From Patescibacteria group bacterium (GTDB taxonomy: Bacteria > Patescibacteriota > Patescibacteriia > PEXW01), in contig JBBTVB010000002.1 of the NCBI GenBank assembly GCA_038063455.1, positions 257,296 to 321,295 of the forward strand: DNA of 64,000 nucleotides, in the 5' to 3' direction. The position numbers and the translations under genes are program-made. Below are positions 3,820-61,852 of this stretch, piece by piece; position 1 is the first letter of the stretch; each line of letters begins with the position of its first letter. Under the pieces are notes generated by a model. The model worked only from the letters and a program-made list of their open reading frames with translations. It was not told where the DNA came from and did no database searches.

Positions 3820-4326
3820 CTAGAATCTAGCCGTCTTCTTATACACCTTCTTATAAACCAGCGATATTACACTCTTGATCGTGTCGAGTGATATTTGTGC
3901 ATGTTTCTTCGTGATAGCCGCGCTTTGTTGAGCCTTGGGATGCACAAGTGAATTTCTCCAATCCTCAACATTGCGAAGATTTGCCCAAAGGAGGTCCTCA
4001 TTGTTGATGTTGTAGTTTCCGAACCTCTTTAGCAGGAAAATAAGCTTGTCTCTTGTAGGTAAGTACTTCGTCCCAGAAATGACAAAGTTTCCATTTGAGT
4101 ATTCCAATTTCTGTTCACTCAAAAAGGCTCGCTCGTGAAGCTCTAGGCTCTTGAGCGAGATAAAGTCAGAAAATGCAAGACTAATAAATCCCTCTAAACC
4201 AAACCATGAAAATGCGATTGATGATTTGAAGTACAAATCCTTGAGGAATGCGTCCTTCTCAGCCACTCCTTGACTGAGCAGTGTTTCTGCTCCTTTCACC
4301 AGCTGTCCAATTTCTGATACCTTCAT
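3820..4326 (-). CDS. Minimal HEPN-domain protein (168 aa), putative RNase effector
   Basis: RNSLVH (aa 124-129, nt 3940-3957) fits the HEPN R[NDH]x3H / Rx4-6H motif. Sequence is helix-rich. The ATG overlaps the upstream stop (ATGA at 4323-4326). Confidence 0.6.
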   Translation of the reverse strand: MKVSEIGQLVKGAETLLSQGVAEKDAFLKDLYFKSSIAFSWFGLEGFISLAFSDFISLKSLELHERAFLSEQKLEYSNGNFVISGTKYLPTRDKLIFLLKRFGNYNINNEDLLWANLRNVEDWRNSLVHPKAQQSAAITKKHAQISLDTIKSVISLVYKKVYKKTARF

Positions 4327-5600
4327 ATACGATTCTTTGCCTTAGTCACTTCTGCCTTCGCGAGTTTGGCATGATAGCTTTTCAATGCCAATTCGATGAG
4401 GAGCTTAGTTAATGTCGGCTTCGCATTTTCAACAAATTGAACGAAGACTTCTGCCATTCTTCCCAGTTCTTTCTTGTCAGATCGTGTGCCTACCCCACGA
4501 TACGTGTCGCTATCTGTGTGGTGCTTAGTAGTCGAAAGTGCCTCTGCGTTCAGAGGGTCGATGTTTGCGGGCTTGCTGAGGCTAAACAATTTTGTCAACA
4601 GTTTCTTGTCGCTCGATAGAGATCCAGCAACCATCGCGAAAGCCGCAGTTACTACTGGCGTGATAGTCTTTGTCTTGAACTCTCCAAACCTCTTGAGCTT
4701 GTCATTGTCTTCAATAGCCGTAATTTGCTGCTTGTGAATCTCCGCAAATGCCTTTCCCGCTCGAATGAGGTCGGGATCCTGCCATAGCTCCTCGCCCTTC
4801 GCATCCAGCAATGAAGTGTACTTATCATCGACCGCGCCTCCGATACTTGATCGACATAGGTAGGGAGAATACAATGCATCCGCGTCATAAGGAGTAGACT
4901 TTCCTTCAAAGAAATTGACGATAAAACTCCTTGCGGATCGCACGGTAATCAACCCCTCTTGATTTTTTCGGTCAGCAAAATCCTTGCCTTTACCTAAGAG
5001 CCCGACAGATTGACACCATTCGCGTAAGCCGGAACGCAACATGGTCTCTTGCATACGATCAAGCAGGTCGACAGGAATTGCGATGTTGGTATTAGAGATC
5101 TGTGCAATCTCGTTCCGTTGCTCTCTCGTCAACGCAAAGTAGCACTTGAAGCCATGAGGGAGGTCAATTCCATCTTGCAAGGCGTCGCCGATAGCAATGA
5201 CCCGATGTTGTCCGCCCAGTACCTTTAGAGGTTTCGAAGCCTCATAAGCTTGATTAAATTCAACGATTAAGTCACTGAACTGCCTCCCTTTTTGTGCGTC
5301 CTCCAACATTTGGGCAAATGCACGATGCTCCTCCTGGATGCTTCGATTTGCCCTATACTCGACTTGTTCATCAGGGTCTAGTACTGCGTCGGGGTCAAGG
5401 AGTGGATCGGCCACAGAAGCAAGTATGTGACACTCGACGTAGTAGGACTTACTCTTTTGGTCCTGGAAGATAATGGGGGTAATGCTCGACGAGCTCTCTA
5501 TGGTTGTGACTGACTTCCAAAACAGTAGAAAGGCCTTCTCCGCCTCACTAGGGAAGTCTGCAATGCGACTGTCTAGAATGTAATTCTTCACTTCGATCAT
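4323..5600 (-). CDS. DGQHR-domain (DndB-like, ParB/Srx-fold) protein (425 aa)
   Basis: LKVLGGQHRVIAIGD (GGQHR = aa 129-133, nt 5202-5216), the hallmark strand plus motif of DGQHR/ParB-like domains. SD AAGGAAG upstream of the ATG. Confidence 0.65.
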   Translation of the reverse strand: MIEVKNYILDSRIADFPSEAEKAFLLFWKSVTTIESSSSITPIIFQDQKSKSYYVECHILASVADPLLDPDAVLDPDEQVEYRANRSIQEEHRAFAQMLEDAQKGRQFSDLIVEFNQAYEASKPLKVLGGQHRVIAIGDALQDGIDLPHGFKCYFALTREQRNEIAQISNTNIAIPVDLLDRMQETMLRSGLREWCQSVGLLGKGKDFADRKNQEGLITVRSARSFIVNFFEGKSTPYDADALYSPYLCRSSIGGAVDDKYTSLLDAKGEELWQDPDLIRAGKAFAEIHKQQITAIEDNDKLKRFGEFKTKTITPVVTAAFAMVAGSLSSDKKLLTKLFSLSKPANIDPLNAEALSTTKHHTDSDTYRGVGTRSDKKELGRMAEVFVQFVENAKPTLTKLLIELALKSYHAKLAKAEVTKAKNRI

Positions 5601-6621: not shown

Positions 6622-6697
6622 GGGAGCATAGCTCAGCTGGTAGAGCAGATCCCTCTTAAGGATATGGTCGGGGGTTCGAATCCCTCTGCTCCCACCA
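6622..6697 (+). tRNA. tRNA-Lys (anticodon CTT), CCA encoded
   Basis: Manual cloverleaf: acceptor GGGAGCA/TGCTCCC, anticodon loop CTCTTAA, T arm GGGGG-TTCGAAT-CCCTC. Confidence 0.9.
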
Positions 6698-6732
6698 GGA
6701 ACCATCACTAGATTCGGTTTCATGGCAAGCCA
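6695..6732 (+). repeat. CCA-pairing trailer hairpin + TGGCAAGCCA motif (tRNA-Lys copy)
   Basis: CCAGGAACC ... GGTTTCATGG pairs with the encoded CCA. TGGCAAGCCA at 6723-6732. Confidence 0.6.
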
Positions 6733-6787
6733 CGAGAGTGTCTCGCCGTGTTTCCGGTGCAAGGGATTCGAACGGGTGCGACCCATC

Positions 6788-6832
6788 GGGAGCACCCTGG
6801 CCCCGAAGGGGCGAATCCCTCTGCTCCCACCA
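6788..6832 (+). pseudogene. tRNA-Lys-derived minihelix / att-like scar (acceptor 5' strand + last 21 nt of tRNA-Lys)
   Basis: GGGAGCA + 17 nt + CGAATCCCTCTGCTCCCACCA. The last 21 nt (6812-6832) are identical to 6677-6697 of the intact tRNA. Confidence 0.55.
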
Positions 6833-18741: not shown

Positions 18742-18864
18742 AGAGTAAATATGTAAATCTGGAGCACTTGGATTGTACGTCGACGGGCGCAGGGGGTCAA
18801 AGCGTTGTCTGGATGCTGATTGTTCGCTACACTCAGCGAGCAATTATTATCCAGAAAAATCCGT

Positions 18865-19038
18865 ATGAAAAACGAAGCGCCTCAGGCAAACCCGATTAAG
18901 AAAGACCTACGAAGGTTGGCGATTTTGCTAGTCGGGATTGCAATAGTACTTGCGGGAATACGGTACTTGTCGCTAAAAACAACAATTGTAAGCGATATAT
19001 CACATAATTTATATAAAGCGACACTTGAAAATAGCTAA
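18865..19038 (+). CDS. Hypothetical small membrane protein (57 aa from ATG; track ORF starts at TTG 18820)
   Basis: Single TM segment LAILLVGIAIVLAGI. No SD seen. Confidence 0.3.
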   Translation: MKNEAPQANPIKKDLRRLAILLVGIAIVLAGIRYLSLKTTIVSDISHNLYKATLENS

Positions 19039-19050
19039 TATAAGCAACTT

Positions 19051-19125
19051 GCCCCTGTAGCTCAATGGATAGAGCAGTCCCGTCCTAAGGGAAAGATGGG
19101 GGTTCGATTCCCTCTTGGGGCACCA
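19051..19125 (+). tRNA. tRNA-Arg (anticodon CCT), CCA encoded
   Basis: Manual cloverleaf with anticodon loop GTCCTAA and T arm GGGGG-TTCGATT-CCCTC. One T-T mismatch in the acceptor stem. Confidence 0.85.
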
Positions 19126-19160
19126 TGAACCACTCGCACGCTCGGGTTCATGGCGGGCCA
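19123..19160 (+). repeat. CCA-pairing trailer hairpin + TGGCGGGCCA (tRNA-Arg-CCT copy)
   Basis: CCATGAACC (19123-19131) pairs perfectly with GGTTCATGG (19145-19153). TGGCGGGCCA at 19151-19160. Confidence 0.65.
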
Positions 19161-19258
19161 CACATAACACTCGCTTTAATGAAGTTCTGCTCTAATAATG
19201 AGTTAGTGGTTCATGCGCTGTACCGAAACGAAGTGACTGGTACATGGCGGCTATAGAT

Positions 19259-19274
19259 TGTTCCACGTGGAACA
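19259..19274. promoter_or_regulatory. parS centromere-like site TGTTCCACGTGGAACA (copy 1)
   Basis: Perfect 16-bp palindrome matching the chromosomal parS consensus TGTTNCACGTGNAACA. Lies 24 nt upstream of tRNA-Ala(CGC). Confidence 0.7.
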
Positions 19275-19298
19275 TATTGAAAATTAGCTAGTATTTAT

Positions 19299-19372
19299 GG
19301 GCCTGTGGTTCAGTGGTAGAACACGGCATTCGCATTGCTGAGACGGGAGTTCGATTCTCCCCAGGTCCACCA
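19299..19372 (+). tRNA. tRNA-Ala (anticodon CGC), CCA encoded
   Basis: Manual cloverleaf with the G3:U70 identity pair and anticodon loop TTCGCAT. Confidence 0.9.
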
Positions 19373-19480
19373 CGCACCAGTCGCCCGCGCTTCGCACGGA
19401 CTCCGGTGCATGGCAAGCCATCAAGCTAAAGTCTTTAATAAGGACAAAGCTGGTGCGTGCCGTGTACCCGAGTTCGTGAA
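19363..19480 (+). repeat. 118-nt perfect direct repeat, copy 1 (tRNA-Ala 3' end + trailer)
   Basis: Identical to 19749-19866 (offset 386), although the two tRNA-Ala bodies differ. Includes the CCA-pairing hairpin (19370-19413) and TGGCAAGCCA (19411-19420). Confidence 0.85.
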
Positions 19481-19632
19481 ACGGACGAGTGGTTCACGGC
19501 GTCTCTAGAGAATTCATGATACGCTCGGGTTCATGGCGAGCCACCTTTCTAAATGGCTCGCGAACTTATATGTAGCGAGTGGTTCATGCGCTGTACCGAA
19601 ACGAAGTGACTGGTACAGGGCACATATCGGAA

Positions 19633-19648
19633 TGTTCCACGTGGAACA
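19633..19648. promoter_or_regulatory. parS centromere-like site TGTTCCACGTGGAACA (copy 2)
   Basis: Second perfect copy, 374 bp from the first and 34 nt upstream of tRNA-Ala(GGC). Confidence 0.7.
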
Positions 19649-19682
19649 TTTGCGAGGAATGGTATAGGATGTTTAACAATAT

Positions 19683-19758
19683 GGGCCTCTAGCTCATCTG
19701 GTAGAGCGCTTCCATGGCATGGAAGAGGTGAGGAGTTCGAGTCTCCTGAGGTCCACCA
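19683..19758 (+). tRNA. tRNA-Ala (anticodon GGC), CCA encoded
   Basis: Manual cloverleaf with G3:U70 and anticodon loop ATGGCAT. Confidence 0.9.
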
Positions 19759-19866
19759 CGCACCAGTCGCCCGCGCTTCGCACGGACTCCGGTGCATGGC
19801 AAGCCATCAAGCTAAAGTCTTTAATAAGGACAAAGCTGGTGCGTGCCGTGTACCCGAGTTCGTGAA
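19749..19866 (+). repeat. 118-nt perfect direct repeat, copy 2
   Basis: Identical to 19363-19480. TGGCAAGCCA at 19797-19806. Confidence 0.85.
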
Positions 19867-20071
19867 GCGGACGAGTGGCTCACGACTTTCGTAATAGCAC
19901 ATCTGGGCTAGGCCCGAGGTCGAACAGAAACCCTAACAAGCATTAAACAGAATTCATCAGTCAGGTACCATACTTTGGAGTTTTTTTACTAGCTAAACAC
20001 GAAAAAATTTGTGGTATGTTTAATTTGATAGATGAACATTGATAATCTAAATTCTACAAACGGGAGATAAT

Positions 20072-20857
20072 GTGAATACGAGTGTAGAAGCGGCTAAACC
20101 TGCAATTGAGGTAAAGAGCTTAAACTTTTGGTACCCAAAACAGAGAGAGAAAGTACTTCATGACGTTACCGTCTCAATCCAGAAATCAAAAATTACCGCG
20201 ATCATGGGGCCATCTGGCTGCGGCAAGTCTACTCTGCTGCGCTGCATGAACCGCATTCATGATATATACCCTGGGTGCCGATACCAAGGTCAAATCATTC
20301 TTCAACCAGACAACCTTGAAATTCTTTCCTCTCGAACTGACCTGTACCTTGTGCGCCAACAGATAGGAATGGTTTTTCAACAGGCAAACCTGTTCCCAAA
20401 AACCATTTATGAAAATGTTGCCTACGGCCTTAGGGTCAATGGGATAAAAGACAAGCAGCTTCTCGATGCATCAGTTGAGGAGTCACTCCGTCAGTCTGCT
20501 CTCTGGGATGAGGTAAAGGACCGACTACATACGCATGCTGGAAATCTTTCTGGTGGGCAGAAACAACGTCTATGTATCGCGCGCGCGATTGTAGTGCAGC
20601 CGCAAGTATTATTGCTAGATGAGCCATGCTCTGCGCTTGATCCAAATGCAACGGGCAGGATTGAAGAACTACTTGTCAATCTGAAGGATAGGTACACAGT
20701 GGTGATCGTGACACATAACCGTGAACAAGCCGGGAGGGTATCAGACTTCATAGCTTTCATGTACCTTGGGGAACTCATTGAGTTCAACGCCAGCGCTAGT
20801 ATTATTGGAAACCCGAAAACGAAACTAGTGCAGGACTTTCTAACCAAAAACTACTAG
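20072..20857 (+). CDS. pstB: Phosphate ABC transporter ATP-binding protein PstB homolog (no pstSCA nearby)
   Basis: LNFWYPK..., [48 protein letters not shown] and [10 protein letters not shown] closely follow the PstB pattern. GTG start after GGGAGA. Confidence 0.85.
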
Positions 20858-59977: not shown

Positions 59978-59997
59978 ATAGAAATTCTACCACATGG

Positions 59998-60053
59998 GTA
60001 GCCTGGGTCCCTTGACCCAGGCTTTCATGACGAGGTCAAGGGACCTCGTCTAC
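59998..60053. repeat. REP/BIME-like element (GTAG-hairpin-spacer-hairpin-CTAC)
   Basis: GTAGCCTGGGTCccttGACCCAGGC ... GACGAGGTCaaggGACCTCGTCTAC. Confidence 0.6.
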
Positions 60054-60091
60054 CCTTGGCTCGCCCTCCCCAGCACCACTCGCAATCTTAA

Positions 60092-61852
60092 CTATTGTGT
60101 ATTGAGGCTCGGGTGCTGGGCAAGCTGCTGGCGCCACAAGGCAGCGTACAGGCCGCTCTGCTTTAGTAGTTCGGCATGGCTACCGTGCTCCACTACTTTA
60201 CCGCGCTCCAGCACGTAAATAACGTCTGCGTGCGCGATGGTAGAGAGTCGGTGGGCGATGAGCACAGTCATGAGCTGCGGCTTCTTAGCCGTAATGTCTT
60301 TAATGGTCTCTGTAATGGCCTGCTCGGTAATGCTGTCCAGGCTACTGGTGGCTTCGTCAAAAATGATGAGGTCAGGTTCGCGCAGCAGCGCCCGAGCAAT
60401 GGCTAAGCGTTGACGTTCGCCGCCGGAGAGCTTAAGGCCGCCCTCACCAATCCGCGTGTCTAAGCCTTGTGCGGAACGGGACAGAATTGTGTCGGCCGCG
60501 GCCGCATGCAGCGAGGTTAGGCATTCCGCATCCGTAGCCTGGGGTCGGACGAATTGCAGGTTTTCCCGAATCGTCCCAGCAAAAAGTTGCGTTTCTTGCG
60601 CCACCAAACCAATGCGCTGGCGGAACTGCCGGTAGTCCATGGCTTGGCTGTCCACGTCGTTGAAAAGTAACTTGCCGTGCGTGGGTTTGTACAAACCGGC
60701 AAGGAGCTTAACGAGTGTGGTCTTGCCGCTGCCCGATGGGCCAACAAAAGCAATGGTTTGGCCAGATTGAATGCTAACCTGAATCTGTTCCAAGGCGGGG
60801 CGCGATGCGGTAGCGTACCGAAAACCCACATCCTGAAACTGAATAGCTGTGAGCTTGCCAACCTGTACGGGCCGGGAGGGTTGTTCGTCAGCCGGTTTTT
60901 TGAGAATGACTTCTAGCTGGTCCATGCTCGCGCGCGCTTCTTGGTATTGCCGTGCCACGGTGCCAAGTTCGGCGAGCGGCGAAAAAATAAAAAAGGAGTA
61001 GATGAGCAAACTGAAGTACTCACCCATGGTAATGTGCTGCTGGAAGATGAGCCAGAACATGAGGACGAGCAAGATAGAACGTAAAGTGTTGATCAGCGTT
61101 CCCTGAATAAAGCTGAACTTGCGAATGATCACGATTTTTTTGAGCTCCAGTTGCAGGATAGTGTCGTTGGTCGTGTTCAGGCGGTCAATTTCTTGCTGCT
61201 CAAGGCCCAGGCTCTTGACCAGCTCCACGTTACGCAGAGTTTCGGTGGTGGAACCGGAGAGCGAGGCAGTTTCCGCAACAATTACTTTTTGCGCGGCTTT
61301 AATTTTTTGGCTAATGAGAAATGTCGCCGTGCCCAACGCTGGAATCATGAGCGTGTACACCAGCCCAATAGACCAGTGCACGGTAAAAGCGTACGAAAGC
61401 ACAAAAAGGATGCCAATGAGGGAGAAGAAGAGGATGCCGATGGCGCTCACAATAAGCGCTTGCACGTCGGTCCTGGCTTTTTGTAACTTCTGCAAGAGCT
61501 CTCCCGACCGCTGATCTTCAAACGCCTGGTAGGGGAGGGAGAACGAGTGCTGCACGCTGTGGGCGTAGAGCCGAGCTCCAATGCGCTGGACCATGACGTT
61601 AACGAAGTAGTCCTGGAAATTCTTGGCAATGCGCGAAACCAATGCCGTGCCCATGGAAAGCAGGACCAGGATAATGACACCTTGGATAAATTGGCTCTGA
61701 CTAAGCTCGGTAACGCGGCTAGCATAACGATCGACCAAAATCCGCATGATTTGGGGGTCGAGCAGGGAGAAACCCTGGTTTATAGCCGCCAGCAAGAGCG
61801 CTCCAAAGAGGAGTCGCTTGTACTTGGTGAGATAGGTCCAAAGAAGTTTCAT
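60092..61852 (-). CDS. ABC transporter, fused permease/ATPase (MsbA/MdlB-like exporter)
   Basis: 6 TM N-domain, then GPSGSGKTT, LSGGERQRLAIARA and IIFDEATS. Confidence 0.9.
   Translation of the reverse strand: MKLLWTYLTKYKRLLFGALLLAAINQGFSLLDPQIMRILVDRYASRVTELSQSQFIQGVIILVLLSMGTALVSRIAKNFQDYFVNVMVQRIGARLYAHSVQHSFSLPYQAFEDQRSGELLQKLQKARTDVQALIVSAIGILFFSLIGILFVLSYAFTVHWSIGLVYTLMIPALGTATFLISQKIKAAQKVIVAETASLSGSTTETLRNVELVKSLGLEQQEIDRLNTTNDTILQLELKKIVIIRKFSFIQGTLINTLRSILLVLMFWLIFQQHITMGEYFSLLIYSFFIFSPLAELGTVARQYQEARASMDQLEVILKKPADEQPSRPVQVGKLTAIQFQDVGFRYATASRPALEQIQVSIQSGQTIAFVGPSGSGKTTLVKLLAGLYKPTHGKLLFNDVDSQAMDYRQFRQRIGLVAQETQLFAGTIRENLQFVRPQATDAECLTSLHAAAADTILSRSAQGLDTRIGEGGLKLSGGERQRLAIARALLREPDLIIFDEATSSLDSITEQAITETIKDITAKKPQLMTVLIAHRLSTIAHADVIYVLERGKVVEHGSHAELLKQSGLYAALWRQQLAQHPSLNTQ

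Follow-up and report, generated by a model that had tools for sequence, protein, structure and literature searches.

A REPIN-like hairpin family adjoining the CCA end of tRNA genes in Patescibacteria and Omnitrophota

What kind of element sits so close to a tRNA gene that the encoded CCA end becomes part of its stem? The question arises from a stretch of 64,000 nucleotides of a Patescibacteria genome (here called the window), where the CCA encoded by tRNA-Arg(CCT) (19051-19125), tRNA-Ala(CGC) (19299-19372), tRNA-Ala(GGC) (19683-19758) and tRNA-Lys(CTT) (6622-6697), all identified by ARAGORN and Rfam, accounts for the three opening pairs of an imperfect hairpin. A first-pass annotation, made from the letters alone, had described these four hairpins, and we confirmed the tRNA ends, the arms and the coordinates. 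Downstream of tRNA-Arg(CCT), the arms CCATGAACC (19123-19131) and GGTTCATGG (19145-19153) form nine pairs out of nine; both tRNA-Ala hairpins (19370-19413 and 19756-19799) consist of CCACGCACC and GGTGCATGG, with one C.A mismatch apiece; and the tRNA-Lys hairpin (6695-6725), formed by CCAGGAACC and GTTTCATGG, reaches seven pairs out of nine in the ungapped register.

The same annotation had placed a TGGCRRGCCA palindrome after each hairpin. The window contains six occurrences of this word where 1.07 would be expected, and none of 100 shuffled sequences contained as many. Five of the copies (6723, 19151, 19411, 19534 and 19797) lie at the positions already reported, and the sixth (16871), located within an ORF, looks like a chance occurrence; the central RR, however, does not represent conserved purines, any two or three nucleotides being found there in other genomes. 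The tRNA-Gly and tRNA-Arg(TCG) genes of the window lack the module, in agreement with the earlier reading, and tRNA-Arg(TCG) is directly followed by an ordinary hairpin and a T run. No terminator-like site was detected across the tRNA cluster (18850-20100).

The hairpin unit in the window

By means of R1, a covariance model trained on forward units only, about 10 units were recognized in the 64-kb window (which is all that was seen of this genome), nine of them within tRNA trailers and one free-standing. The features are as follows.

6622..6697, plus strand: tRNA-Lys(CTT) (ARAGORN, Rfam)
6695..6732, plus strand: diverged forward unit of tRNA-Lys, CCAGGAACCATCAC..ATTCGGTTTCATGG followed by CAAGCCA (R1 33.6 bits, E 4e-8)
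19051..19125, plus strand: tRNA-Arg(CCT) (ARAGORN; Rfam tRNA 56.1 bits), whose C74-C75-A76 (19123-19125) are nucleotides 1-3 of unit A
19123..19160, plus strand: forward unit A (R1 60.4 bits, E 2e-16), with a hairpin at 19123-19153 (arm1 CCATGAACCACTCGC, arm2 GCTCGGGTTCATGG) and the tail CGGGCCA at 19154-19160
19202..19215, plus strand: arm3 of module A, GTTAGTGGTTCATG, 13/14 pairing to arm1
19216..19247, minus strand: inverted unit of module A (R1 minus-strand match 19219-19244, 20 bits, E 6e-4)
19299..19372, plus strand: tRNA-Ala(CGC) (ARAGORN, Rfam)
19370..19420, plus strand: forward unit B1 (R1 48.6 bits, E 9e-13), with arm1 CCACGCACCAGTCGC, an apical insert of 15 nt, arm2 ACTCCGGTGCATGG and the tail CAAGCCA
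19446..19499, minus strand: arm3 (19446-19459) and inverted unit (19460-19499) of module B1 (R1 minus-strand match 19455-19499, 25.5 bits, E 1e-5)
19523..19620, plus strand: module A', with neither tRNA nor arm1 (direct-repeat families D7 and D13), comprising arm2 and tail (19523-19543), the P3 hairpin GCGAGCCA/TGGCTCGC, arm3 (19575-19588) and an inverted unit (19589-19620)
19683..19758, plus strand: tRNA-Ala(GGC) (ARAGORN, Rfam)
19756..19885, plus strand: module B2 (repeat family D1; R1 plus-strand match 48.6 bits, minus-strand match 12.3 bits), comprising a forward unit (19756-19806), arm3 (19832-19845) and a degenerate inverted unit (19846-19885)
60069..60123, plus strand: free-standing forward unit with a CCC/GGG foot, CCCAGCACCACTCGC..GCTCGGGTGCTGGG CAAG (R1 24.4 bits, E 3e-5)

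The arm3 of module A is a partial direct copy of arm2, complementary to the proximal part of arm1, and the inverted unit of the same module reads on the plus strand as a second hairpin ('hairpin II'), CGCTGTACC-G-AA..GA-C-T-GGTACATGG. Module A' is matched by R1 on the minus strand (19592-19617) and weakly on the plus strand (19513-19544), and module B2 shares 97% identity with B1 over the interval running from the 3' end of the tRNA through the inverted unit. The tRNA-Lys unit has no inverted partner and is followed by another conserved block and by a copy of the tRNA 3' end. The unit at 60069-60123 has no adjoining tRNA and overlaps the 3' end of a minus-strand ORF (60092-61852).

Each unit is about 40 to 60 nt long. 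Its foot of 9 bp is followed by a bulged A, a single Watson-Crick pair, an internal loop (2x2, UC/UC), two further pairs and an apical loop of 3 to 35 nt, and its 3' tail has the form C-N2-3-GCCA; the conserved feature where hairpin and tail meet is UGG (the partner of CCA), C-N2-3-G and a second CCA. The arms of the hairpins had been correctly described, but the unit is longer than first supposed, with a conserved bulge, an internal loop and an inverted unit downstream, and the window holds a further copy at 60069-60123. Little or no variation is seen at the bulged A, U12/C13 and U22/C23.

The hairpin structure is genuine. Pairing between arm1 and arm2 holds in 97.1% of the alignment cells; pair 11-24 occurs as three Watson-Crick types with zero exceptions, pair 14-21 is AU in 11 sequences and GC in 11, and the S:S' pair of the inverted unit is CG in 10, GC in 10 and UA in 3, again with zero exceptions. 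None of 500 shuffles matched the observed covariation, and slid controls were about 30% paired. G.U and A.C departures are about equally frequent (6 versus 6 and 16 versus 19), a parity that RNA helices usually do not show. The pairing of arm1 with arm3 is lower (85%), each of the distal five pairs being unpaired in 3 to 12 of 23 sequences. As read from the alignment, columns 11 and 85 do not covary, so that the extended arm1:arm4 pairing is not maintained and the GA is not kept for pairing with the UC.

Distribution, orientation and turnover of the family

Pattern scans across genomes detected the family in Patescibacteria and Omnitrophota, both ultra-small bacteria. Searches of Rfam 15 with the window and 15 module-bearing loci returned only tRNAs at the gathering score, while E-value searches gave noise, and a full-text literature search yielded no account of the unit. 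The family is apparently widespread, and undescribed in Rfam 15 and in the literature searched, which bears out the earlier remark that the motif was not a described one. That annotation had also pointed to two ways of challenging its proposal, enrichment after tRNA genes and covariation of the arms with the CCA context: the motif is strongly enriched after tRNA genes, and the covariation is present.

Of the units sampled, about half are fused to a tRNA CCA. They follow about 20 tRNA species, which carry any discriminator base and whose acceptor and T arms are unrelated, and the fused forward unit always lies on the tRNA strand, starts at C74 and has its junction after A76. In a metagenome sample drawn independently of tRNAs, the foot was CCA/UGG in 16 of 16 tRNA-fused units, whereas all eight units with a CCC(U)/GGG foot stood elsewhere (Fisher p = 0.0008); the GCCA tail was present in 15 of the 16 former and in one of the 8 latter. 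The A-U third pair of the foot is specific to the tRNA-fused copies. Many tRNAs of module-carrying genomes lack the unit. At L180, L184 and L122, the spacer between two tRNAs is filled exactly by a module, and orthologous tRNA-Leu(CAG) genes keep the module in three genomes, with compensatory differences. At L150, tRNA-Gly and tRNA-Cys are followed by ordinary terminators, the stems of which likewise start at the CCA.

Tests on the opposite strand revealed the larger architecture. R1 matches the opposite strand at hairpin II, 40 to 70 nt downstream, in the window as well as in some 20 other modules, so that a full module, which is the usual arrangement, consists of a forward and an inverted unit. 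This is a REPIN-like doublet of 100 to 150 nt. The inverted copies keep the complements of the unpaired bases, with the bulged A becoming an invariant U and UC/UC becoming GA/GA; this conservation of complements is explained by one recognition at the DNA level and not by one recognition at the RNA level.

Furthermore, the copies occur in several other arrangements. A unit lies upstream of a uvrB-like ORF at L208; a further copy was seen at L129; at L165 a unit is nested inside the loop of another; units of 27 nt are arranged head to tail at L188, where the tail CCA doubles as the CCA of the next unit; and L183 and L133 hold arrays. Truncated units also occur, and many units are without arm3 or the second hairpin. 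The flanks of L238 and L241 are 100% and 99.3% identical, while the enclosed modules share 59% identity and differ by indels. Near-identical copies, variable parts included, exist within a single genome (L128/L142; B1 and B2 of the window, at 97%), whereas L121, L152 and L198, also from one genome, carry copies that are alike in the conserved arms only. A comparison of the bases flanking the doublets showed no target-site duplication. No empty site was seen, and in a search for relatives suited to an empty-site comparison the best PstB homologue outside the genome was 59% identical, leaving none close enough; for L238/L241, the hypothetical empty allele would join the tRNA CCA straight to TAACATATTC.

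A separate kind of duplication shares this neighborhood. The last 20 nt of tRNA-Lys (6678-6697) recur exactly at 6813-6832, beyond the unit and the conserved block, and similar tRNA 3'-end duplications were observed at L194, L152, L141, L150, L126, L140 and L121. At L152 the unit stands after the displaced copy of the tRNA, while in the window it follows the intact tRNA, which shows that the unit does not depend on the duplication.

Explanations of the family

The family behaves more like tiny mobile DNA than like a dedicated tRNA-processing signal. We suggest, with a probability of roughly one half, that it is a non-autonomous hairpin element of REP/REPIN type which inserts right after the tRNA CCA, and that the masking of the CCA is a by-product, possibly co-opted. 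Of the three roles put forward by the first-pass annotation, that of a small element targeting tRNA 3' ends fits best, given the inverted, free-standing, nested and tandem copies and the turnover between identical flanks.

The main rival to a mobile element is a function at the RNA level. According to this explanation, which we regard as possible though unlikely, the module would be a cis-acting element of the tRNA 3' trailer, where hairpin I masks the CCA, offers a surrogate GCCA and, with the second hairpin, directs or delays 3' maturation, through an endonuclease cut at A76 or as a stop for 3' exonucleases, or else replaces a terminator. Such a function would suit the invariable placement of the forward unit on the tRNA strand from C74, regardless of tRNA identity and discriminator, the A-U third pair and GCCA tail that mark the tRNA-fused copies, the spacers filled exactly by modules, the retention by the tRNA-Leu(CAG) orthologues, and a cluster (18850-20100) that has no consensus terminator while the unit-less tRNA-Arg(TCG) has a hairpin and a T run; no transposase was found in the loci searched, and a precedent exists in the endonucleolytic removal of a hairpin just 3' of the CCA of E. 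coli leuX (PMC2811032). However, as RNA the inverted copies form a different motif, with tandem GA and a bulged U, free-standing copies take either orientation relative to genes, some copies are nested or in tandem, modules between identical flanks are 59% identical, many tRNAs of the same genomes have no unit, the U tract is absent, and G.U is no commoner than A.C. Masking of the CCA, as first proposed, would be a real consequence for the transcript, but it leaves the conserved complements of the inverted copies unexplained. Less probable by far is a conformational switch or attenuator, in which arm1 with the CCA would pair with either arm2 or arm3 and so set read-through into the next tRNA or gene. 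Even though arm2 and arm3 are direct copies, either able to pair with arm1, double changes at columns 4-6 occur in both pairings, and the P3 hairpin takes up the GG that pairs with C74 and C75, the arm1:arm3 pairing is weak in its distal five pairs, arm3 or the second hairpin is often missing, the inverted or second-unit architecture already accounts for arm3, and there is no terminator to control.

It is likewise improbable that the units are relics of the att arms of tyrosine-integrase elements that use tRNA 3' ends. The tRNA 3' ends are recombination hot spots in these genomes, the tRNA-Lys 3' end has its copy at 6813-6832, seven other loci have similar duplications, and two of 145 neighboring ORFs are of the integrase family. 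Nevertheless, unit and tRNA have the CCA alone in common, with no flanking tRNA-derived direct repeats; the acceptor and T arms of the roughly 20 tRNA species are unrelated; the stems covary as hairpins; and L152 and the window differ in where the unit stands relative to the duplication. Least probable of all, and very doubtful, is that TGGCNNGCCA is a duplex-DNA operator, bound 3' of tRNA genes by a dimeric protein acting as regulator or roadblock. Although the 10-mer is a palindrome and over-represented in the window, its center varies in sequence and in length (2-3 nt), its left half is set by pairing with the CCA and becomes GGG where the foot is CCC, and the whole hairpin is conserved, with compensatory changes that a duplex site would not need. 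The protein-binding palindrome of the first-pass annotation is therefore unsupported as a duplex operator, its halves being an anti-CCA (UGG) and the second CCA.

Several other readings fit poorly or were rejected. A DDE-type miniature element (MITE) would suit the outer arms, which are inverted repeats, but not the flanks of the doublets, whose bases do not match, with no target-site duplication. A Rho-independent terminator is at odds with the missing U tract, the zero terminator-like sites at 18850-20100 and the varied sequence after the modules, and an att site with the fact that the tRNA direct repeat brackets another block after tRNA-Lys, not the unit. A small ORF starting from an ATG that overlaps the CCA is lost in other copies, which have ACG or AGG there, and the extended arm1:arm4 and arm2:arm3b conformers require positions that, as read from the alignment, do not covary. 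For the GA/GA loop, a k-turn or sarcin-ricin motif was discarded on inspection of the strand layout, which lacks a 3-nt bulge, and the covariation of S:S' is that of a Watson-Crick pair. A T-box (GUGGUAC, UGGN-NCCA pairing) found no Rfam match and generally no aminoacyl-tRNA synthetase context, the likeness being limited to 7 nt. As for a self-cleaving ribozyme or a minimal RNase P substrate, no known class fits, and the tail is C-N2-3-GCCA, not NCCA right after the helix; a cyclic phosphate at A76, moreover, would be harmful. A scan of viral contigs with the 20-mer core gave 108 stretches, nearly all from one coding gene, which we take from sequence resemblance, not from annotation, to belong to a P2-like prophage family, and was uninformative. 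Finally, TIGR-Tas systems consist of arrays of 5-15 units with two ~9-nt spacers each, beside a Tas gene with a Nop domain, their boxes C and D being CCA and UG (PMC12045711), whereas the present units are single or in doublets beside tRNAs, and the 25 commonest families of the 145 neighboring ORFs, a list too short to show a family seen only once, include no Nop domain.

Among known systems, REPs and REPINs offer the closest parallels. TnpA-REP requires an imperfect palindrome interrupted by a bulge and a conserved flanking motif (PMC8266576), one end of a REP bears an unpaired, conserved tag, GTAG or CGTC (PMC3733652), and REPINs are inverted REP doublets (PMC3116915). Our family shares with them the short imperfect palindromes, the conserved bulge or mismatch and the conserved unpaired flanking motif (PMC3733652, PMC3116915, PMC8266576), as well as the apparently extragenic location, both orientations, inverted doublets with a short spacer, tandem arrays, the lack of a target-site duplication and the possibility of near-identical copies within a genome. 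However, the unit is longer (about 40-60 nt) and has no GTAG or CGTC, its tag being C-N2-3-GCC(A) on the 3' side; it resides in Patescibacteria and Omnitrophota instead of Proteobacteria; and about half of its sampled copies share three nucleotides with the tRNA CCA, for which we found no report in REPs. Neither tblastn over 780 kb (the window and the genome-scan loci) nor a motif regex over 1.47 Mb detected a cognate RAYT or REPtron. The 145 neighboring ORFs are housekeeping genes with only the two integrase-family matches, none of them a mobilizing gene, and tblastn over the 780 kb, with IS200/IS608 queries, found no Y1 transposase. Two genuine Y1 genes in metagenome loci go with other repeats or are unrelated, unlinked to the unit, and a RAYT-like ORF at L248 is flanked by different repeats.

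The recognition of cleavage sites through guide nucleotides is established for IS608 and ISDra2. In the IS200/IS605 family, such sites are described as recognized via base pairing with guide nucleotides carried by the element (PMC6006769). The present family is similar in its putative insertion 3' of a short specific sequence, in a single orientation and with no target-site duplication, and in its irregular hairpins, which serve as recognition elements there; the UGG-CCA pairing and the second, 3' CCA would suit a guide logic. On the other hand, the two end hairpins of IS200/IS605 have the same orientation, whereas our second hairpin is inverted; their guide lies 5' of the hairpin, whereas the putative guide of the unit lies 3' and forms a continuous helix with the target; and the target would be three nucleotides plus a structural context, with no linked TnpA found. 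The hairpins and intrinsic terminators of tRNA trailers, such as that of E. coli leuX, where RNase P cuts 4-7 nt past the CCA, are also stable hairpins at the CCA, removed by endo- and exonucleases (PMC2811032). They differ in that the unit has no U tract, bears a second CCA, occurs in inverted and free-standing copies and is conserved in sequence across phyla, unpaired positions included. Integrative elements that target tRNAs use the same genomic place and coexist with the unit in these genomes, but they carry an integrase and duplicate tRNA segments of 17-45 nt, whereas the unit shares the CCA alone and measures 40-150 nt in total.

For a REP/REPIN-like mobile element, it is possible to hypothesize the following course. 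A hairpin-recognizing enzyme, with the HUH/Y1 'peel and paste' transposases of the IS200/IS605-RAYT kind as the nearest precedent, would handle the element as a folded single DNA strand. Insertion would take place directly 3' of a CCA, with the UGG beside the element's hairpin pairing with the target CCA in the manner of a guide. The GCCA of the tail would be the right-end site and would restore the CCA target, which would account for the head-to-tail arrays; a folded single-stranded tRNA gene, with its acceptor stem and NCCA, would resemble the element's hairpin and GCCA, and this likeness could account for the preference for tRNAs. In the primary tRNA transcript the trailer hairpin would sequester the CCA and would need to be removed, and the host may tolerate it or co-opt it as a 3' barrier or a substitute for a terminator.

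Several observations point the other way. In the loci searched, neither a mobilizing gene nor a Y1 transposase linked to the unit came to light, the GTAG and CGTC tags of REPs are absent, and no empty site was seen. The retention after tRNA-Leu(CAG) and the likeness of L121, L152 and L198 in their arms only count against mobility and fit selection for a host function. The restriction of the GCCA tail and the A-U third pair to tRNA-fused copies also counts against mobility and could mean a requirement at the RNA level.

More tentatively, the family might be a new guide-directed single-strand hairpin transposon that homes to the tRNA CCA, with UGG as guide and the second CCA as right-end site, and/or a domesticated signal that masks and then releases the CCA in tRNA 3' maturation. 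Under any explanation, the family is a defined and testable object. For annotation, its units are absent from Rfam, break assemblies and adjoin separate tRNA 3'-end duplications that can be mistaken for tRNA gene fragments. If the mobile-element explanation holds, genomes of about 1 Mb would, despite strong streamlining, harbor a small palindromic element in many copies, one that exploits the CCA end of tRNAs, a sequence that no cell can change; this would be a natural case of targeting by structure and three base pairs, and the family would serve as a marker for horizontal exchange between Patescibacteria and Omnitrophota. Since the precursor CCA would be locked in a 9-bp helix, its precise release by some nuclease would be needed, and, if the units were domesticated, a large share of the host's tRNAs would have a selfish hairpin as part of their maturation.

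Anatomy and covariation of the CCA-end hairpins

Directly 3' of four of the six tRNA genes in the window there is a hairpin whose 5' arm starts with the encoded CCA, and its arm sequences match exactly those reported in the first-pass annotation, which is thereby confirmed; tRNA-Gly and tRNA-Arg(TCG) are without the module. The latter tRNA, which has no unit, is followed by an ordinary hairpin and a T run. The TGGCRRGCCA palindrome described in the same trailers proved to be enriched, with six copies in the window against 1.07 expected and no shuffle reaching six; five copies lie in tRNA trailers and the sixth (16871) within an ORF. In the following list, a unit is an imperfect hairpin with its C-N2-3-GCCA tail, and a module is a forward unit with an inverted unit downstream.

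Units and modules in the window (window coordinates)
19051-19125: tRNA Arg-CCT, hairpin at the encoded CCA
19299-19372: tRNA Ala-CGC, hairpin at the encoded CCA
19683-19758: tRNA Ala-GGC, hairpin at the encoded CCA
6622-6697: tRNA Lys-CTT, hairpin at the encoded CCA
19123-19247: module A
19370-19499: module B1
19523-19620: module A', a copy lacking both arm1 and a tRNA
19756-19885: module B2, 97% identical to B1
6695-6732: diverged unit behind tRNA-Lys
60069-60123: free-standing forward unit with a CCC/GGG foot (basal 9 bp), at the 3' end of a minus-strand ORF, found with the covariance model R1

The comparison of the window copies with copies from elsewhere allowed us to derive the anatomy of the module, and the hairpin unit exceeds its first description in length and parts. 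Arm1 (C74 C75 A76 U G A A C C - A - Y - U C - R C) and arm2 (G Y - U C - R - G G U U C A U G G) enclose, in the forward unit, an apical loop of 3 to 35 nt and are followed by the tail, C-N-N(-N)-G-C-C-A. After the tail there is often a small hairpin (P3), built on GGCNNG and leaving the CCA in its loop; a variable spacer then leads to arm3 (..UGGUUCAUG), and the second hairpin reads CCCUGUACC-S-GA-(variable stem-loop)-GA-S'-U-GGUACAGGG.

The structure of the module is backed by covariation. The conserved segments were aligned for 23 full modules without gaps, a manipulation being that the variable loops were swapped for fixed linkers. In this alignment, 97.1% of the arm1:arm2 cells are paired, no shuffle reached the observed covariation, and slid controls were about 30% paired. 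In particular, pair 11-24 occurs as CG (16), UA (4) and GC (3), and the S:S' pair of the second hairpin as CG (10), GC (10) and UA (3), neither being ever unpaired; pair 14-21 is AU or GC in 11 modules each, and pair 6-28 is AU in 18 and CG in 5. The inner stem of the second hairpin varies freely in sequence with its complementarity kept, and the bulged A, the UC/UC loop and the C..GCC of the tail are invariant or nearly so, though unpaired. An extended arm1:arm4 helix, with GA kept for pairing with UC, was rejected, as covariation is lacking between columns 11 and 85.

The unit is neither a known RNA family nor a terminator: searches of the window and of 15 module-bearing loci of other genomes against Rfam 15, whether at gathering score or with permissive E-values, returned tRNAs alone, the tRNA cluster presents no consensus promoter or terminator, and no U tracts follow the modules.

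Inverted copies, distribution and tRNA specificity

Each module consists of a forward unit and an inverted unit. R1, trained solely on forward hairpin-plus-tail units and run over the window without filters, ranked the four tRNA-linked units at the top (60.4, 48.6, 48.6 and 33.6 bits), and its opposite-strand matches coincide with the second hairpins, at 19455-19499 (25.5 bits) and at 19219-19244 and 19592-19617 (20 bits each), as well as in about 20 modules of other genomes. Because a forward-only model matches the opposite strand at these sites, the second hairpin is the first one in inverted form, with a bulged U complementary to the bulged A and a tandem GA/GA complementary to UC/UC.

Among loci from pattern scans of other genomes and metagenomes (L numbers), free-standing units occur in L129 and, upstream of a uvrB-like ORF, in L208; in L165 the loop of one unit houses a second, nested unit, and in L195 and L205 compact units are joined to a tRNA-Leu 5' fragment. 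L188 carries a head-to-tail array of 27-nt units, the tail CCA of one doubling as the foot CCA of the next, and arrays are also present in L183 and L133. Adjoining the free-standing unit of the window, between two minus-strand ORFs, we could observe a compact Y-shaped inverted-repeat region (59990-60068), with an outer stem GGGTAG..CTACCC around two perfect hairpins, CCTGGGTC-CCTT-GACCCAGG and CGAGGTC-AAGG-GACCTCG.

A scan of one genome per species with the pattern ACCANNNACC..GKTKCATGGCNNGCCA yielded 102 loci, about half of them real units and the remainder chance matches in coding sequence; of 105 matches, 36 stop precisely at a tRNA 3' end called by ARAGORN and several more lie behind tRNA-like ends, the preceding tRNAs being of about 20 different species. 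The hosts are almost only Patescibacteria (Doudna-, Komeili-, Peri-, Parcu- and Saccharibacteria) and Omnitrophota, with a few MAGs under other labels; the window itself comes from a Patescibacteria MAG.

The tRNA connection of the unit is specific. A metagenome scan whose pattern covered only the core, and was silent on foot, tail and tRNAs, gave 33 distinct bona fide units among the matches listed. Among these, the 16 fused to a tRNA, with discriminator A, G or U, all have a CCA/UGG foot, whereas the eight with a CCC(U)/GGG foot all lie away from tRNA 3' ends (Fisher p = 0.0008); a tail GCCA 4-5 nt past the foot is present in 15/16 of the former versus 1/8 of the latter. Since foot type and tail GCCA track tRNA fusion, the arm covaries with the CCA context, as it should according to the test proposed in the first-pass annotation. 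Behind other tRNAs, in L150 (tRNA-Gly and tRNA-Cys), L184 (tRNA-Phe) and L162, ordinary terminator-like or long hairpins (e.g., CCAAAGAAAAATACTCCAG..CTGGAGTATTTTTCTTTGG) likewise have their first base exactly at the CCA or inside it; such CCA-inclusive trailer hairpins may be a widespread trait of these lineages that does not depend on the unit.

Further features of the tRNA loci

Downstream of tRNA-Lys and its unit, a conserved structured block (6757-6832; GGTGCAAGGGATTCGAAC-GGGTGCGACCCATCGGGAGCACCC-TGGCCCCGAAGGGGC), with no Rfam match, closes by repeating exactly the last 20 nt of tRNA-Lys (6813-6832 = 6678-6697). Blocks of this type recur in L194, L152, L141, L150, L126 and L140, and several Patescibacteria genomes show a tRNA, then 110-260 nt, the block and a tRNA copy (reaching from either the T loop or the anticodon loop to the CCA), in some cases repeated in tandem, with separate terminators; block and copy look like attL/attR of tiny integrated elements. 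In L121, from a Patescibacteria genome (7190-7345, compared with L139 and L195), a complete but different tRNA-Leu(CAG) and 39 nt come first, then 21 nt left over from the 3' end of the original tRNA-Leu, and then the unit. In this group, T-loop recombination appears to replace tRNA genes.

Two copies of a perfect 14-bp palindrome, GTTCCACGTGGAAC, are present (19260-19273 and 19634-19647), both 25-35 nt before a tRNA-Ala gene and right behind modules A and A', respectively; a regulator of these genes may bind there, or the palindrome may belong to the duplicated segment. A common element, TTGAAAAT(T)AGCTA(A/G)TAT, directly precedes tRNA-Arg(CCT) and tRNA-Ala(CGC) (19016-19040 and 19277-19298); it does not match sigma-70 spacing and may be a lineage-specific tRNA promoter. 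On the minus strand between tRNA-Arg(TCG) and tRNA-Lys (3820-5600), two ORFs (168 and 425 aa) may form a small island adjoining the tRNA genes, the GGQHR motif of the longer one recalling DndB/DGQHR-type defence proteins. A 27-nt repeat (family D9; CCGCCCAACCAGGG(T/C)GGTGGTTTTGTA) at 1253-1279 and 2508-2534, 96% identical and 1255 nt apart, is probably a shared terminator, with a small G+C hairpin and a T run.

A mobile element or a trailer element

We consider the unit family to be a mobile element acting at the DNA level with a probability of about 0.5. As RNA, UC/UC with a bulged A and GA/GA with a bulged U are different motifs, whereas as DNA they are one object seen on the other strand; the retention of complements of unpaired nucleotides in inverted copies therefore indicates the DNA level over the RNA level. 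Departures from pairing, with G.U about as numerous as A.C, were counted as pointing the same way. Furthermore, two metagenome contigs with one common tRNA (L238 and L241) have flanks 100% and 99.3% identical, and over the 120 columns enclosed by these flanks identity drops to 59%, with indels; since near-identical flanks enclose so divergent a stretch, the difference is a replacement and not point-mutation drift. No target-site duplication was found in the bases flanking doublets. Inverted complements, turnover and lack of target-site duplication are properties of REP/REPIN-type elements. In REPs, a bulge interrupts the imperfect palindrome and a conserved motif flanks it; HUH Y1 enzymes process them in the form of folded single strands, and they spread as inverted doublets (PMC8266576, PMC3116915, PMC3733652, PMC6006769). 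Unlike REPs, the unit is without REP tags.

Peel-and-paste, the specific mechanism envisaged, is given a low probability. The element would insert directly 3' of CCA, its UGG pairing with the target CCA like the guide nucleotides of IS200/IS605 elements, and the tail CCA would be its right-end site; one UGG could serve both ends, because UGG-(CNNG)-CCA is able to fold on its own into a hairpin of 3 bp. The tail CCA would also recreate a target, which would explain head-to-tail arrays, and a single-stranded tRNA gene, once folded, might present a stem plus NCCA resembling unit and tail. Against a mobile element, no mobilising gene was found among 145 ORFs within 2.5 kb of units, which are ordinary housekeeping genes apart from two integrase-family hits; tblastn in 780 kb, with IS200/IS608 TnpA sequences as queries, detected no TnpA, and no empty site was observed among the loci compared. 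A motif search retrieved two genuine Y1 genes, one of them unrelated (L275). The other (L248 7400-8560) is a RAYT-like transposase ORF (motifs YHITQRGN, NHVHFV and RYVELNP) with its own flanking repeats, AAAGGGGACAGACACCTTT, a different REP family, on a contig that also carries one unit in a tRNA leader. In an independent Logan assembly of the window's organism (ERR3858126, L002), the contig breaks 235 nt upstream of pstB within module B2 (cf. 19837), as expected if the repeat confounds assembly.

The main rival of a mobile element, to which we assign a low probability, is a cis-acting trailer element masking the CCA and guiding 3' maturation or termination. The module of the tRNA-Leu(CAG) ortholog is retained in three genomes with compensatory differences, the unit copies of one particular genome have nothing but the conserved arms in common, and the A-U foot pair and the tail GCCA are tRNA-specific; this rival is kept because these three points would also be expected from a host RNA function. 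As a precedent, E. coli RNase P removes the leuX terminator 4-7 nt past the CCA (PMC2811032). An RNA switch, in which arm1 would choose between arm2 and arm3, is a weak candidate, as arm1:arm3 is often absent and poorly maintained (85% paired, with 3 to 12 of the 23 modules unpaired, by pair, at the distal five pairs). Integrase att relics, proposed as the origin of the units, are real in these genomes, yet a phenomenon separate from the unit, and a duplex operator, TGGCNNGCCA, is made unlikely by its variable centre and by the change of UGG to GGG along with the foot.

The unit family is real and widespread and, in keeping with the first remark that this was not recognised as a described motif, is absent from Rfam and the literature searched. 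It would be a family of REP/REPIN-like palindromic repeats with an unusual docking on the tRNA CCA end. A mobile hairpin and a trailer role are compatible, and the element may have been co-opted by its host.
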